A DNA stretch of 53,814 nt, from positions 1 to 53,814 of the forward strand of contig JAVBOJ010000010.1 in the NCBI GenBank assembly GCA_031550755.1. The letters run 5' to 3'. A program made the translations under genes and the position numbers. Position 1 is the stretch's first letter, and each line of letters begins with the position of its first letter. The notes under the pieces were generated by a model. The model was not told the DNA's origin. It saw only the letters and a program-made list of their open reading frames with translations, and did not search any database. The stretch comes from Oscillospiraceae bacterium. Lineage in GTDB: Bacteria; Bacillota; Clostridia; Oscillospirales; UBA929. Positions 4,202 through 48,928 of the stretch are shown one piece after another.

Positions 4202-4277
<76 letters not shown>

Positions 4278-20785: not shown

Positions 20786-21952
20786 ATGCGCGATTTCAGC
20801 TATCACAATCAGACCCACATTGTCTTCGGCAAAAATTCCGAGGCGCAGACCGGCGCGCTGGCCCGCGCGGTATCCGACAAGGTGCTGCTGCACTACGGCG
20901 GAGGCTCGGTCGTGCGTTCGGGGCTGCTCGACCGGGTGAAGGCGTCGCTGCGGGACGCCGGAGTGGCGTTTGTCGAGCTTGGCGGGGTCTGTCCCAATCC
21001 GCGGCTGTCGCTTGTGCGCGAGGGCATTGCCCTCTGCCGCAAGGAAATTCTCGGCTGTATTCTGGCCGTCGGCGGCGGCAGCGTCATCGATTCGGCCAAG
21101 GCCGTCGGCATGGGTGCCGTCTATGACGGCGACGTTTGGGACTTCTTCTGCGGCAAGCCGTTTCCCGGCACCCTGCCGCTCGGCGTCGTGCTGACCATCC
21201 CGGCCGCCGGCAGCGAATCGAGCACCGATGCCGTCATCACCAACGAGGATGGCTGGCTCAAGCGCGGCTCCTGCGCGTCCGAAGGGATGCGCCCGGTGTT
21301 CGCCGTGCTCAATCCCGCGCTGACCTTTACCCTGCCGCCCTATCAGACGGCGGCGGGCGTTTCCGATATCATGGCGCACGTCATGGAGCGCTATCTGGTG
21401 GACGAGGGCGGTGTGGACGTCACCGACCGGCTGTGTGAGGCGGTGCTGCGCGGCGTGATGCACAGCGCGCCGATCGTACTGGAGCGCCCGGAGGATTACA
21501 ATGCGCGCGCCGAGATCATGTGGGCCGGCACACTGGCGCACAACAACCTGCTGGGCGTCGGCCGCCGGGGCGACTGGTGCTCCCATCGGCTGGGGCACGA
21601 GCTGTCGGCGCTCTATGACGCCACCCACGGCGCGACGCTGTCGGTCATGTTCCCGGCGTGGATGAAATATGTGTACAAGCAAAATCTGCCGCGCTTCGCG
21701 CAGTTTGCCCACAGGGTGATGGAGGTCTCCTGGGATCCGTGGGATTTGGACGGCATGGCGCTGGAGGGCATCCGCCGGCTGGAGGCGTTTTTTGTCCGGC
21801 TGGGTCTGCCGGTCACCATCCGCGGGCTTGGGGTGGAGAATCCCGACATCGCCGATATGGCGCGCAAGGCGACGATGCTGGATGCGAGCTTCGGCGGGCT
21901 GGTGCGGCTCGACCGCGCCGCGATTGAGGCCGTGTACCGGCTGGCGGTATAA
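20786..21952 (+). CDS. Iron-containing (group III) alcohol dehydrogenase, butanol dehydrogenase/YqhD-like
   Basis: It carries GGGSVIDSAKA and the metal-binding histidines in HVMERY / HRLGHELS. Confidence 0.85.
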   Translation: MRDFSYHNQTHIVFGKNSEAQTGALARAVSDKVLLHYGGGSVVRSGLLDRVKASLRDAGVAFVELGGVCPNPRLSLVREGIALCRKEILGCILAVGGGSVIDSAKAVGMGAVYDGDVWDFFCGKPFPGTLPLGVVLTIPAAGSESSTDAVITNEDGWLKRGSCASEGMRPVFAVLNPALTFTLPPYQTAAGVSDIMAHVMERYLVDEGGVDVTDRLCEAVLRGVMHSAPIVLERPEDYNARAEIMWAGTLAHNNLLGVGRRGDWCSHRLGHELSALYDATHGATLSVMFPAWMKYVYKQNLPRFAQFAHRVMEVSWDPWDLDGMALEGIRRLEAFFVRLGLPVTIRGLGVENPDIADMARKATMLDASFGGLVRLDRAAIEAVYRLAV

Positions 21953-21979
21953 ACACAAAAAGCCGCCCCGCAAGACGGC

Positions 21980-22008
21980 TTGGCAAACGGAAAATATTGC
22001 GGTAAAAT
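21980..22008 (+). promoter_or_regulatory. Promoter of the candidate antisense sRNA
   Basis: TTGGCA (21980-21985), 17-bp spacer, TAAAAT (22003-22008). Confidence 0.5.
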
Positions 22009-22012
22009 AGAC

Positions 22013-22108
22013 GCAGAGGGTAGGCCGTTTTGAACGGTTCGCCCAAGTTAGTAATTTATTCGAAAGAAATAAACCGAACCTCTGGCGGGGGCGGTTTATT
22101 TCTTTTTG
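22013..22108 (+). ncRNA. Candidate ~95-nt antisense sRNA (type I antitoxin-like)
   Basis: It starts just after the promoter above and contains the hairpin CCGTT-ttg-AACGG. It ends in a 12-bp-stem terminator plus TTTTT (22103-22107). It is fully complementary to the 3' end of the minus-strand toxin mRNA, including its last codons. Confidence 0.45.
22065..22107. terminator. Bidirectional intrinsic terminator shared by the toxin mRNA and the antisense sRNA
   Basis: AGAAATAAACCG (22065-22076) pairs perfectly with CGGTTTATTTCT (22092-22103). T-rich tracts follow on both strands. Confidence 0.7.
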
Positions 22109-22182
22109 TCCATATATCGAATCAGCGAAACAACAAACGCCGCAAATGCGATCATAAGCGTCAACGCTTCATACGTAGACAA
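22096..22182 (-). CDS. 28-aa holin-like (Hol-Tox type) small hydrophobic toxin candidate
   Basis: TTG start with GGAGG 9 nt upstream. The product is MSTYEALTLMIAFAAFVVSLIRYMDKKK, a single TM segment with a lysine tail. This matches my memory of the 'putative holin-like toxin' family (MS.YEAL.LM..F). It is too short for the ORF track. Confidence 0.55.
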   Translation of the reverse strand: MSTYEALTLMIAFAAFVVSLIRYMDKKK

Positions 22183-22457
22183 AGTCCATCACCTCCTTCC
22201 GGAGGCGTAGGTAATCACTGATCAAATCCTCACACGCCATCTTGGCGTGTAATTGGCCCCCACTCATCGCCGATTTATTCAGTAATTACTTAGGCAAACC
22301 GTCCCGATCCGGAAGCGCGTATGCCTCGAGCAGGGAGGCCAAGACGCGACAAGGCCGGGAAAACCAAGCCGCGCCGCAGCGCGACTGTTTTCTCGGACTG
22401 AGAGCGGCTTAGGCGACCGACCGCGAGAGGCTGGACGCGTGACAGCTACCCTCTGCT
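22183..22457 (-). promoter_or_regulatory. ~270-nt structured 5' leader of the toxin ORF with an SD-sequestering hairpin
   Basis: On the minus strand CCTCC-GGAA-GGAGG (22205..22192) pairs the SD with an anti-SD. Other elements are the hairpin ACACGCCA-tct-TGGCGTGT (22232-22250) and the stem CCTAAGCCGC/GCGGCTTGG. No convincing ORF is present. Confidence 0.5.
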
Positions 22458-22463
22458 GTGGAA

Positions 22464-22492
22464 ATTGTACGGCATTTGTCGAAATGTGTCAA
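22464..22492 (-). promoter_or_regulatory. Consensus promoter of the toxin transcript
   Basis: On the minus strand, TTGACA (22492..22487), a 17-bp spacer and TACAAT (22469..22464). Confidence 0.6.
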
Positions 22493-22525
22493 GCAGATAC
22501 CCGGGACGCCCTCCAGAACGGAGCT

Positions 22526-23866
22526 CTACGTCACCTTGTTCATCCATTTTCCCGACAGCGCGCGCACCCCGCAGACGACGCATTTAAACAGCATCTCGGC
22601 GTGCACCAGCAGCACGCAGGCCCAGATGGGGAAGCCGAAAACCCGCACGCTGAGGAAGGCCAGCGGGACGCCGATGGCCCAGACGGCCACGATGTCCATA
22701 AGCAGCGAAAACTTCGTGTCGCCGCCGCTGCGCAGGATGCCCACCATGATGGCGTACTCGACGCAGCGGATCGGCATCATGATCGCCGTCACCCAGAGCA
22801 CCTGCCGGGTCAACTCGGCCTCCAGCGGCGTGACCTTGAACAGTCCCGGCAGCAGCGGGATGACCAGCGCCAGCACAAGGCCCAGCGCCACACCCAAAAT
22901 GCCGGTCAGCCCCAGCACTTTCCGGGCGTACCGCAGCGCGGTGTCCCGGCGGCCCGCGCCCAGCTCATGCCCCAGAATGACGGCGCAGGCATTGCCCATG
23001 CCGTAGGACAGCACAATAAACAGATTGAACACCACGCCGGAGATCTGCACCGCCGTTTGGGCGGGGGTCCCGGCGTATTTATAGGCCGCGTTGTAGAGCG
23101 AATTGCCCACCGACCAGCTCAGCTCCACCAGAATGACAAACCCGGCGGTACGGAAAAACTTCGCGGCAAACGCCCGCCCGAAGCGCAGCAGTCCGCGCAG
23201 GGGCGCGGCCACCGGCATTTTTTTCGCGTAGACCAGCGCGGCCAGCACCGTGATCTCCACGGCGCGCGCGACAGACGTGGCGATGGCAGCGCCGTTTGTG
23301 CCGAGAGCCGGGAAGCCCAGCAGGCCAAAGATCAGCACGGCGTTGAGCCCGGCGTTGACCAGCAGGGCGATGACCGTGGTGAACAGCGCGGGGCGCGGCT
23401 GGCCGACGGCTCGCAGGCCCATGGAAAAACAGTAGGCGACGGCGGTGAACACATAGCTCGGCGCAACCCGCGTCAGATAACCCGCGCCGATTTCAATGAC
23501 CGCCGGATCGGCCGAATAGACCGACATCAGCGCGCGCGGGAAAAACAGCGCCAAGCCCGCAAACAGCACGGCCGCAGCCAGTGAGCAGGTCAGCATGAGG
23601 CTGACGGTTTTGTGGATCCCGGCCTCATCGCGGTTTTCGCCCCAAAATTGGGCGATAAAAATCATGCCGCCGCTGGAAATGCCAAACAACAGCACGGTGT
23701 AGATCATAAACACCTGATTGGCCAGCCCGACGGCGGTAATTTCCGCGCCGCCCAGCCGCCCGACCATGAAATTATCCAGCAGGTTGATGGCGCTGCCCAA
23801 AAACTGCTGCATAACGATGGGCAGTCCCAACCGCAGGATTTTTTTAGAAAAGGAAATGTCCTCCAT
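22526..23866 (-). CDS. MATE family efflux transporter
   Basis: MEDISFSKKILRLGLPIVMQQFLGSAINLLDNFMVGRLGGAEITAVGLANQ is the canonical MATE N-terminus, and the protein has 12 TM segments. The upstream 153 codons of the track ORF are non-coding-like. Confidence 0.88.
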   Translation of the reverse strand: MEDISFSKKILRLGLPIVMQQFLGSAINLLDNFMVGRLGGAEITAVGLANQVFMIYTVLLFGISSGGMIFIAQFWGENRDEAGIHKTVSLMLTCSLAAAVLFAGLALFFPRALMSVYSADPAVIEIGAGYLTRVAPSYVFTAVAYCFSMGLRAVGQPRPALFTTVIALLVNAGLNAVLIFGLLGFPALGTNGAAIATSVARAVEITVLAALVYAKKMPVAAPLRGLLRFGRAFAAKFFRTAGFVILVELSWSVGNSLYNAAYKYAGTPAQTAVQISGVVFNLFIVLSYGMGNACAVILGHELGAGRRDTALRYARKVLGLTGILGVALGLVLALVIPLLPGLFKVTPLEAELTRQVLWVTAIMMPIRCVEYAIMVGILRSGGDTKFSLLMDIVAVWAIGVPLAFLSVRVFGFPIWACVLLVHAEMLFKCVVCGVRALSGKWMNKVT

Positions 23867-23946: not shown

Positions 23947-24228
23947 TTAAACTAGGTATTCCATATAATGCCGCACCACGTCGCGCGCCCGGGCGATATG
24001 CCGGCAGACCACCGACGGATGCACGCCCCATAGGTCGGCAATCTCCTTTTGCGACAGCCCCTCGCCCACATGCAGGCGGAAGGCCTCCCGCTGGCGCTCG
24101 GTGAGCTCGCGGCGCATGACCCGGCTCATCAGAGCGCCGGTTTTTTGCCACAGCGCGGCGTTGTCCCCCTCGGAGTACAGCTCGCTCCACAGCGCCGCGC
24201 GGCGGCGGGCGTCCGGCGGCCGGCTCAT
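23947..24228 (-). CDS. Small sigma-70 region-4-like HTH protein (93 aa)
   Basis: It contains LTERQREAFRLHVGEGLSQKEIADLWGVHPSVVCRHIARA. Its start forms an ATGA overlap with the upstream ORF. Confidence 0.6.
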   Translation of the reverse strand: MSRPPDARRRAALWSELYSEGDNAALWQKTGALMSRVMRRELTERQREAFRLHVGEGLSQKEIADLWGVHPSVVCRHIARARDVVRHYMEYLV

Positions 24229-24434
24229 GAGGTGCGCCTCCTGAGATAACGCTCGATTTGGGCGGCGGTGTCGCGCGCCTCCCGCCACATCTCATACAGC
24301 ATCTCGACGCGTTTTTGGCGGGCATAGGCCGGGGAGTCGTCCTCCGGCAGCCGCCGCACGGCTTTCAGCCGGCCATACAGCCGCTCGGCCTGAGCCTGGG
24401 ATTCGTCGCGCAGCGCCTCCAACGTCACGCCCAC
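24225..24434 (-). CDS. Hypothetical helical protein (69 aa)
   Basis: Overlaps at both ends indicate translational coupling to both neighbours. I do not recognise a family. Confidence 0.45.
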   Translation of the reverse strand: MGVTLEALRDESQAQAERLYGRLKAVRRLPEDDSPAYARQKRVEMLYEMWREARDTAAQIERYLRRRTS

Positions 24435-24613
24435 TCCTCCTCACGGCTCGGCGTCTGCCGCAGGCAGTCGGCAAAAAACATCTCGGCATAGCCGCCAAGG
24501 CAGTCGGGACAGACGATTTCTCCGCCGATCTCGTAGCACGGGTCGCCCGGATACAATGCGCAGCCATACCGGCACAGGCGCGTGGGCGGACGATTTTGTG
24601 GATCGGAAAACAT
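24425..24613 (-). CDS. Hypothetical Cys-rich (zinc-ribbon-like) protein (62 aa)
   Basis: MFSDPQNRPPTRLCRYGCALYPGDPCYEIGGEIVCPDCLGGY contains CxxxC...CxxC. A GAGGTG RBS lies 5 nt before ATG 24613. Confidence 0.45.
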   Translation of the reverse strand: MFSDPQNRPPTRLCRYGCALYPGDPCYEIGGEIVCPDCLGGYAEMFFADCLRQTPSREEEWA

Positions 24614-24826
24614 ACAAACACCTCGATTCGTGTTGCTCAATCTCTTGTCGTATGTAAGTCTTTTTAGTTTCTGACTTCACTATACTACACATAACGTGTA
24701 TCGTCAAGCCAAAAACATTGAGATGGCGTAGCAAAACCCGCCGGTTTGTGATATACTTCAAAGTTGAGGACTGCTTCATTTATTGTGCGCTACTTTATTC
24801 TATTCAAAAAAAACGGAGGGACACCC

Positions 24827-27902: not shown

Positions 27903-28123
27903 CGACAAAGATTGACAGACAGTCCGCGATTCGGTATACAGACAAAAAGAAGTAACCGCCCCCCGGCCAAGGCAGGCGGTTGCTCTTTTTAGATAACCTT
28001 CACCTGAGCGCACCGTTCCAAACGGACTGCCCTCACCGTGAGTATACCACTTTTCGCGGGAAAGTCAGCCCCCGGGGAGTGGATTTTTCTATATTTGAGC
28101 ATGGAGGAAAGGACGGGCATCTC

Positions 28124-48819: not shown

Positions 48820-48835
48820 GAAAAAGCGTCCATAT

Positions 48836-48925
48836 ATTCCCTACGCCGGCATGATCCGGATCAGGTCAAAGGGTCGGAAGAAGCACTTCCCTCTCAGCCC
48901 GTGGCTCGGGCTCCCCGTGTTGGGC
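48836..48925 (-). promoter_or_regulatory. TPP (THI-box) riboswitch
   Basis: The minus strand reads ACGGGGAGCCCGAGCCACGGGCTGAGAGGGAAGTGCTTCTTCCGACCCTTTGACCTGATCCGGATCATGCCGGCGTAGGGAA. It has the conserved CTGAGA, ACCCTTTGACCTGATC-GGAT-ATGCC-GCGTAGGGAA signature. Confidence 0.9.
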
Positions 48926-48928
48926 GTC

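Follow-up and report, generated by a model that had tools for sequence, protein, structure and literature searches.

Between the genes for an alcohol dehydrogenase (ADH) and a MATE transporter, contig JAVBOJ010000010.1 of an Oscillospiraceae bacterium carries a 573-bp spacer that holds, on its minus strand, a 28-codon open reading frame (ORF) starting with TTG (22182..22096) and, on its plus strand, a predicted gene for a small RNA (sRNA) that converges on it. The contig was analyzed over its full 53.8-kb stretch, referred to here as the window. The GC content of the module region is 41 to 55%, compared to 60 to 73% across the window. We consider it highly probable that the spacer is an unannotated but otherwise standard chromosomal type I toxin-antitoxin module of the BsrE/BsrH type (Pfam Hol_Tox), with an RNA architecture like those of bsrG/SR4 and bsrE/SR5.

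The ORF encodes the peptide MSTYEALTLMIAFAAFVVSLIRYMDKKK, which matches Pfam PF16935 (Hol_Tox) over positions 1 to 34 of the 34-position profile (48.2 bits against a cut-off of 23.3; E = 9.7e-13). With its 28 amino acids, hydrophobic core LTLMIAFAAFVVSLI, and charged C-terminal tail DKKK, it has the form of a small toxin (<60 amino acids, one hydrophobic helix). In tblastn searches it is 55 to 57% identical to genes recorded as "putative holin-like toxin" on plasmids of Bacillus subtilis, Enterococcus, and Listeria. The top match (57% identity; peptide MSTFQALTLMLGFGMFILALLTYLDKKK) lies on plasmid pBS72 of B. subtilis, which has been named as a carrier of BsrE (PMC6562991). The NCBIfam models score the peptide below their cut-offs (ComI, 16.1 bits with a cut-off of 55; PepG1, 14.3 bits with a cut-off of 70).

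Related loci were found by means of back-translated degenerate DNA patterns in viral contigs (50), species-representative genomes (76), and metagenomes (22), leaving 121 loci after deduplication. All of the matches examined are Hol_Tox ORFs of 21 to 34 codons, and the hosts given in the records include Oscillospiraceae and other Clostridia, Megasphaera, Veillonella, Phascolarctobacterium, Enterococcus, Listeria, Paenibacillus, and Fictibacillus, among others. In DNA sequence, the module comes closest to three contigs from a single uncultured Oscillospiraceae genome (L092, L101, and L093, the last with two tandem modules). The similarity to them spans positions 22205-21996 and takes in the Shine-Dalgarno (SD) hairpin, the ORF, the hairpin that follows, the antisense region, and the -10 box of the sRNA promoter, with the leader lying outside. 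Loci with recognizable promoters share a common layout: the distance from the end of the toxin -10 box to the start codon is, as a rule, 51 to 84 nt, a hairpin contains the SD, and the convergent promoter, which in many cases is a perfect TTGACA-17-TATAAT, ends 76 to 132 nt beyond the stop codon, again as a rule. Tandem pairs of Hol_Tox modules, about 330 to 400 bp apart, occur in L093, L073, L094, and L113 (Oscillospiraceae and Megasphaera). Dozens of IMG/VR viral contigs with a GC content of about 40% (among L001-L050) carry one and the same Hol_Tox gene, of 25 codons and with a TTG start (LSTYEALSLMIAFSTLIAIVILGCK); toxins of this family are common on phages of gut Firmicutes.

A consensus promoter scan of positions 21500-23000 returned two sites in total, where 0.5 would be expected from shuffled sequences, and these are the two promoters of the module. 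The toxin promoter, TTGACA-17-TACAAT (22492..22464, minus strand), agrees with the consensus at 11 of 12 positions and has its probable +1 at A22457 or G22456; no promoter nearer the toxin ORF was found by the scan or by eye. The spacer between its two boxes resembles that of L092 and L101, a short box described below lies at the same offset in all of them, and by sequence we take this promoter to be the homologue of the toxin promoters of the relatives. The sRNA promoter, TTGGCA-17-TAAAAT (21980-22008, plus strand; 10 of 12 positions), has a -10 box that ends 87 nt past the toxin stop codon, within the family range of 76 to 132 nt. The predicted antitoxin sRNA is about 96 nt long (22014-22109, plus strand) and consists, by covariance model and fold, of the 5' box, a small hairpin, a linker, and a terminator. 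The model (R1) was built on the predicted sRNAs of 22 relatives, with the window excluded, and searched against the 53.8 kb with filters off. It gave just two matches, of which the first is this sRNA, recovered at full length (47.4 bits, E = 1.3e-8), and the second lies at 28036..27942 on the minus strand (41.9 bits, E = 2e-7). The sRNA folds more stably than its shuffles (z = -3.6). No match to the Rfam antitoxin RNA families (e.g., RatA, RF01776) was found for the plus-strand sRNA within 21900-22600 at E values up to 10.

Two hairpins frame the toxin ORF. Upstream, SL1 (22212..22186, minus strand) sequesters the SD: its core, CCTCC-GGAA-GGAGG (22205..22192), is extended to about 10 bp, and GGAGG stands 9 nt ahead of the TTG start. 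SL1 is found in the folds and is conserved, with G-C/G-U exchanges, in the 38 loci that were aligned. Downstream, the toxin stop codon lies in the 5' arm of SL3 (about 22108..22063), which has U-runs on both strands, is conserved in the relatives, and is predicted to be the intrinsic terminator of the sRNA. Much of the original prediction is upheld by these results. It had proposed a holin-like type I toxin-antitoxin module with a TTG-initiated ORF of 28 codons and with Hol_Tox (PF16935) as the family to compare it to; it had placed both promoters where the scan finds them, the SD within CCTCC-GGAA-GGAGG, and the stop codon inside a terminator hairpin. The convergent antisense sRNA over the toxin 3' end, which it had also claimed, is supported in silico by the R1 match and by the same layout in the relatives.

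The most striking feature of the spacer is an 11-nt box, GCAGAGGGTAG, that occurs on both strands (22013-22023, plus; 22456..22446, minus), exactly as had been claimed. An exact inverted repeat of at least 11 bp appears in 3.2% of shuffles of the 573-bp spacer and alone would be marginal; it is significant because the two copies lie 4 to 7 nt after each -10 box and are conserved in the relatives. On the comparative evidence, the twin box is not a new regulatory element but the two strands of a long-range RNA helix, P1, that joins the 5' end of the toxin mRNA to its 3' untranslated region (UTR). The 5' strand of the outer part, P1a, is the box with one further nucleotide, GCAGAGGGTAG(C), at the extreme 5' end of the mRNA (22456..22445), and it pairs at 11 of 11 positions with 22023..22013. 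The 5' strand of the inner part, P1b, is GGGACGGTTTGCC (22305..22293), which aligns with the conserved GGGACGGTTCGCC of the relatives, and its partner is 22044..22034. Both 3' strands lie in the toxin 3' UTR (minus strand), and the same DNA, read on the other strand, encodes the 5' hairpin of the sRNA. Since the sRNA starts opposite the end of P1, it follows from the geometry that the 5' ends of the two RNAs are identical.

The box pairs with its 3' arm (22023..22013) at -22.6 kcal/mol, and P1 is present in the minimum free energy fold of the 500-nt RNA of the window, with all 11 pairs of P1a and 10 bp of P1b, one of them G-U. The RNAs of 15 relatives, taken from the predicted +1 as far as the position that faces the sRNA start, were also folded, and in every one the two ends joined in a long closing helix. 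The first ~25 nt of the toxin 5' UTR in the relatives resemble the first ~25 nt of the sRNA; that is, they are complementary to the toxin strand beyond the stop-codon hairpin. RNAalifold, applied to an alignment of 38 RNAs, predicts P1b (columns 166-176 with 481-491) with many compensatory changes, one pair occurring as AU in 12 sequences, CG in 7, UG in 5, GC in 4, and UA in 3. For P1b and SL1 together, 91.5% of the cells are paired, compared to 79% in shuffles and 42 to 57% with slid partners, and the covariation score is 0.50, compared to 0.27 for the shuffles, of which none in 500 scored as high. Covariation in related loci, for which the original prediction had proposed a search, is therefore present in both elements. 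The arms of P1a pair with a mean energy of -18.3 kcal/mol when cognate and -9.2 kcal/mol when not (-25.2 kcal/mol in the window), and the cognate arm ranks first in most loci. In 36 of 38 loci, the entire helix is stabler when read in the toxin sense than when read in the antisense (-38.6 versus -32.0 kcal/mol; Wilcoxon p = 1e-7), because G-U pairs are frequent in it and A-C oppositions rare (about 62 versus 12 in P1b).

An 11-bp inverted repeat that is free of mismatches and closely follows both -10 boxes, in modules that occur in many genomic contexts and in tandem, could also be read at the level of DNA, either as an operator through which one regulator acts at both promoters or as the terminal inverted repeats of a small mobile element. 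We think that this is extremely unlikely. The arm sequences are wholly different between subfamilies, yet their complementarity is kept, and the excess of G-U over A-C is that of an RNA helix and not of a DNA site. Both promoters, moreover, lie outside the repeat, so an element bounded by it would carry no promoter. We also considered whether the toxin promoter and its box might be left over from a tandem module that once lay upstream. No other part of such a module is recognizable, and this origin was rejected because the box is the perfect complement of the 3' arm of its own module.

The original prediction had assigned the boxes a different role. It had both RNAs end at one shared bidirectional terminator and overlap there alone, and it had the boxes pair with the anti-SD strand, CCUACGCCUC (22215..22206), as a switch between SD-open and SD-closed states. 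The hairpin at 22108..22063 does carry a U-run on each strand, and a pairing of 8 bp with one bulge is possible between the box and CCUACGCCUC, at -10.5 kcal/mol. However, this is less than half the energy of the pairing with the 3' UTR partner, and in the relatives the box/anti-SD pairing is weak and inconsistent (-4 to -14 kcal/mol), that is, unconserved; we regard it as fortuitous. A switch in which the antitoxin's own box opened the SD would, in addition, activate the toxin instead of repressing it. Neither does the shared terminator hold, as the 5' UTR covaries, in the 38 loci, with sequence beyond SL3 in a helix that is favored in the toxin sense, which places both arms in one RNA and has the toxin mRNA extend past SL3. 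Taken as a whole, the earlier model now seems very improbable.

We conclude that the toxin mRNA probably runs past SL3 to a terminator at 21981..21960 (minus strand; 9-bp stem followed by UUUUUGUGUUU, with the tail reaching 21950), which would make it about 500 nt long. This terminator, left unused in the earlier reading, lies 30 nt after P1 and has its T-run on the minus strand only. The predicted toxin RNA folds more stably than its shuffles both at 398 nt (z = -5.3) and at 500 nt (z = -8.1). A simple terminator scan of all loci placed a toxin-sense terminator 85 to 112 nt past the stop codon in about 20 of them, a count from an insensitive scan that missed known hairpins. Many Oscillospiraceae-type modules (L092, L093, L133, and similar ones) have a U-rich stretch after P1 and no separate toxin-sense terminator. 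In the closest relatives, the toxin mRNA may be terminated by P1 itself together with this stretch, through a stem formed from the first and last nucleotides of a 230-nt RNA.

The leader sets the module apart from its relatives. From the probable +1 (22457/22456) to the start codon it measures 275 nt; counted from the end of the -10 box, the distance to the start codon is 281 nt, the longest among the 121 loci, compared to 51 to 84 nt as a rule, so the earlier claim that the leader is atypical was correct. Its length is due to two insertions that fall at the junctions of conserved elements. Insertion 1 (22444..22306, minus strand) is a rod-like segment of 139 nt between P1a and P1b; at 66% GC it matches the surrounding genome, and it is absent from all 37 of the aligned relatives. 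Insertion 2 (22288..22208, minus strand), an 81-nt self-contained stem-loop between P1b and SL1, is likewise absent from the aligned relatives. In these, CCAGGGACGGTTCGCC comes directly after the box, whereas in the window GGGACGGTTTGCC follows it 139 nt later. The insertions fold independently (-61.7 kcal/mol for insertion 1 and -32.2 kcal/mol for insertion 2) and, when the full RNA is folded, leave P1 intact and project from it. As to their origin, no significant similarity was found to the rest of the module, to its second copy (see below), to the window, to the 150 fetched loci, to plasmids, or to Rfam. Comparison with other loci indicates that leader expansion is not unique to this one: the leader of L112 measures ~150 nt and begins with P1a, and in L138 the same P1a/P1b junction holds a small hairpin. 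An ATG-initiated ORF of 32 codons (22267..22169, minus strand) starts in insertion 2, runs in a different frame through the SD hairpin and over the toxin start, and ends 11 nt past the TTG. It has no SD and no Pfam match, and this mok-like position is probably due to chance.

The second match of the sRNA model belongs to a degenerate copy of the module (27923-28068, both strands) that lies between a hydrolase gene and a ZIP transporter gene. All that remains of the toxin ORF there is its last 10 codons (SAIRYTDKKK) and the stop (27923-27955, plus strand), directly after the hydrolase stop codon. The sRNA gene found by R1 (28036..27942, minus strand), on the other hand, keeps the hairpin, the P1 3' arm, and the terminator, and it is preceded by a promoter-like site, CTGACT-16-TATACT with TG (28068..28041, minus strand). 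The two sRNAs are identical at 73 of 101 positions. With this degree of identity, some cross-pairing of the orphan sRNA with the intact toxin mRNA is conceivable, and the orphan might cross-react with it.

Both the leader and the second copy bear on whether the module is still active. At the tip of insertion 1 is a hairpin (22386..22367) that is terminator-like on both strands (dG = -16.4 kcal/mol), with the tail UUGGUUUUCCC on the toxin strand, and the first 100 nt of the nascent leader fold as a 5' stem-loop and this terminator. The hairpin probably attenuates transcription of the toxin, and the module may be attenuated or already silenced. If it is silenced or decaying, the terminator between promoter and ORF would leave mainly a ~100-nt noncoding RNA (22457..~22358), with the toxin rarely or never expressed and the sRNA persisting. 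That the leader is the longest of the 121 loci, and that a truncated toxin with a kept sRNA lies only 5.8 kb away, fits this picture. However, the ORF, the SD hairpin, the near-consensus promoter, and both arms of P1 (P1a at 11 of 11 positions, P1b over 10 bp with one G-U) are intact, termination may be just partial because the U-tract of insertion 1 is interrupted, and L112 and L138 have expansions at these positions in modules that are otherwise intact. On balance, we consider silencing unlikely, although it is the alternative to which we would give the most weight. More doubtful still is the idea that the insertions are an added control domain, with the 139-nt rod a conditional transcription attenuator that is read through on some signal or when the box is engaged elsewhere. 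If this were true, a type I toxin would have a third, transcriptional gate beside its buried SD and its antisense RNA.

The genes around the module encode a glycosyltransferase, an Fe-ADH, the MATE transporter, a small sigma-70 region 4 (HTH) protein, pyruvate kinase, a GDPD-family protein, and a hydrolase. The context is thus chromosomal and nonprophage, with housekeeping genes all around, in a high-GC, Clostridia-like host genome. Judged from these neighbors, there is no endolysin gene in a prophage setting, as would accompany a phage holin or lysis cassette. No terminator was found between the MATE stop codon (22526) and the toxin promoter, and the first minus-strand terminator-like hairpin after the MATE gene is the one in the toxin leader (22386..22358). 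This hairpin may therefore also end the MATE transcript, and read-through from the MATE gene would include the toxin 5' box and stop there. Nor was a plus-strand terminator found that belongs to the ADH gene: the T-run of the hairpin at 21960-21981 is on the minus strand, and the first terminator downstream on the plus strand in this region (21952-22112) is the one that ends the sRNA. Read-through RNAs from the ADH gene would therefore include the entire antitoxin sequence. No record elsewhere matches the ADH protein exactly; the relative that a protein search placed nearest to it (P0002; the next-best matches are at most 61% identical) comes from GCA_009685425.1, in which the module is absent and an aldo-keto reductase gene stands between ADH and MATE. 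Directly upstream of the MATE gene (23947-24640, minus strand), a 113-amino-acid protein with only sigma-70 region 4/HTH domains is encoded, followed by two small ORFs without a Pfam match, a group that could be a small regulatory or mobile-element remnant. Above the gathering score, Rfam recognizes just two elements in the window, a TPP riboswitch (66.6 bits, 48820-48927) and a tRNA gene (4205-4277), both on the minus strand.

The module can be compared to several known systems. Its peptide shares with those of bsrE/SR5, bsrH/as-bsrH, and pBS72, all from B. subtilis, membership in Hol_Tox, a length of 28 to 30 amino acids, the motif MST(Y/F)(E/Q)AL.LM, and the tail ...Y.DKKK. Like bsrE and bsrH, whose antisense RNAs lie tail to tail with the toxin genes and overlap about 100 nt of the toxin 3' end (PMC2965217, PMC6562991), it has a predicted antisense RNA, tail to tail with the toxin gene, over the toxin 3' end, an SD in a hairpin, and a helix that closes the 5' and 3' ends. 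It differs from them in its high-GC, Clostridia-like host, its chromosomal, nonprophage location, and its TTG start. Its leader is also much longer (275 nt versus about 40 to 60 nt), and its sRNA is shorter (about 96 nt with two hairpins versus 163 to 200 nt with four) and, because it starts at the very end of P1, nested within the toxin mRNA, unlike those of bsrE and bsrH.

The folding plan corresponds to that of bsrG/SR4 of the SPbeta prophage. Probing of bsrG RNA showed that nt 1 to 35 pair with nt 232 to 262 (P1), that SL1 holds the SD, that the stop codon lies in SL3, and that the terminator comes right after P1; binding of SR4 makes the 5' strand single-stranded (PMC3834814). P1, the SD in SL1, the hairpin over the stop codon, the terminator after P1, and an antitoxin complementary to the P1 3' strand are common to both (PMC3834814). 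In contrast, BsrG is a 38-amino-acid toxin of the TxpA/BsrG group, and SR4 tightens its SD helix from 4 to 8 bp, whereas the SD helix here has about 10 bp from the outset, and the sRNA is not predicted to alter it. The Listeria RNA rli28, too, encodes a BsrH-like peptide and is opposed by a convergent antisense RNA (PMC9484302), and rli28/rli50, with their RatA-like antisense RNA, resemble our locus in both respects; rli28 is also its highest-scoring Rfam match. The txpA/RatA pair shares the convergent antisense sRNA that overlaps the toxin 3' end.

More distant parallels are found in par and hok/sok. As in par (fst/RNA II, Enterococcus pAD1), convergent transcripts surround a bidirectional terminator and repeats lie near both 5' ends. 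The par repeats are direct, however, so that its two RNAs are complementary at their 5' ends, whereas the repeat here is inverted, which makes the 5' ends identical and puts the complementarity within the toxin mRNA. The hok mRNA of plasmid R1 is locked in its full-length form by pairing of its 5' and 3' ends, with the SD buried, and Sok acts at the 5' leader via the mok reading frame. Paired mRNA ends and a buried SD are thus common to both systems; in contrast to hok/sok, the toxin here belongs to an unrelated family, the antisense RNA would act at the 3' end, and the overlapping 32-codon ORF lacks an SD.

Comparison to Rfam had also been suggested in the original prediction. The BsrG model (RF01412) recognizes the pBS72 locus at 134 bits and L093b at 48.1 bits, both at full length. 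The window reaches 24.7 bits in a partial match (model positions 26 to 153, E = 8e-4; gathering score, 55), its insertions interrupting the 5' part, and it matches the full model of rli28 (RF01492) at 38.0 bits (22297..22111, E = 0.004; gathering score, 45). The minus strand of the module thus resembles two relevant families below threshold, but no family scores above its gathering score there, and the plus-strand sRNA is without an antitoxin-family match. That the locus stays below the gathering scores of both BsrG and rli28 counts against its assignment to this class of modules, as does the imperfect -35 box of the sRNA promoter (TTGGCA). The hairpin in insertion 1 could also halt most transcripts before the ORF, and the RNA ends, the relative promoter strengths, and the toxicity of the peptide are all inferred. 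We nevertheless hold to a BsrE/BsrH-type module, and we consider only the interrupted 275-nt leader and the orphan sRNA copy to be unusual in it, as the striking twin box already has a known explanation.

The mechanism that we propose starts from what the in silico analysis established, namely, the identity of the toxin, the two promoters, the sRNA gene, the covarying P1 and SL1, and the nesting of the sRNA in the toxin 3' UTR. The toxin mRNA would begin at about 22457 (minus strand) with the box, followed by GGGACGGTTTGCC; these would pair with 22023..22013 and 22044..22034 of its own 3' UTR to form P1, which would enclose SL1, the 28-codon ORF, and SL3. The mRNA most likely ends at 21981..21960, after about 500 nt. 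The plus-strand sRNA, of about 96 nt, would start exactly opposite the end of P1 and terminate at SL3; for this reason it is complementary, along its whole length, to the end of the ORF and the 3' UTR, the P1 3' strand included. By analogy with the Bacillus systems, the sRNA would be present in excess (PMC6562991, PMC3834814). It would pair with the toxin 3' UTR, from the terminator loop first, and then invade P1 and free the toxin 5' strand. The resulting duplex of ~96 bp would be cut by RNase III, while the buried SD and the TTG start would hold translation low. If the sRNA were lost, the small membrane peptide would be made and the cell or its membrane harmed. Specific to this locus are the two insertions, one of 139 nt between P1a and P1b and one of 81 nt between P1b and SL1, which leave the arms of P1 intact.

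For the organism, the findings mean that one small gene of predicted toxicity and two sRNA genes are absent from the annotation, which is relevant to cloning, to knock-outs of neighboring genes, and to the reading of transcriptomes. The interrupted leader marks sites at which a toxin mRNA of this family tolerates or exploits large insertions while its closing helix is kept. Two convergent promoters, each immediately followed by one arm of an inverted repeat, could serve as a search signature by which such modules are found and their limits set. The BsrE/BsrH-type module has been studied almost only in Bacillus, and the same RNA design is seen here in Oscillospiraceae-type Clostridia, Negativicutes, enterococci, Listeria, Paenibacillus, and many viral contigs.

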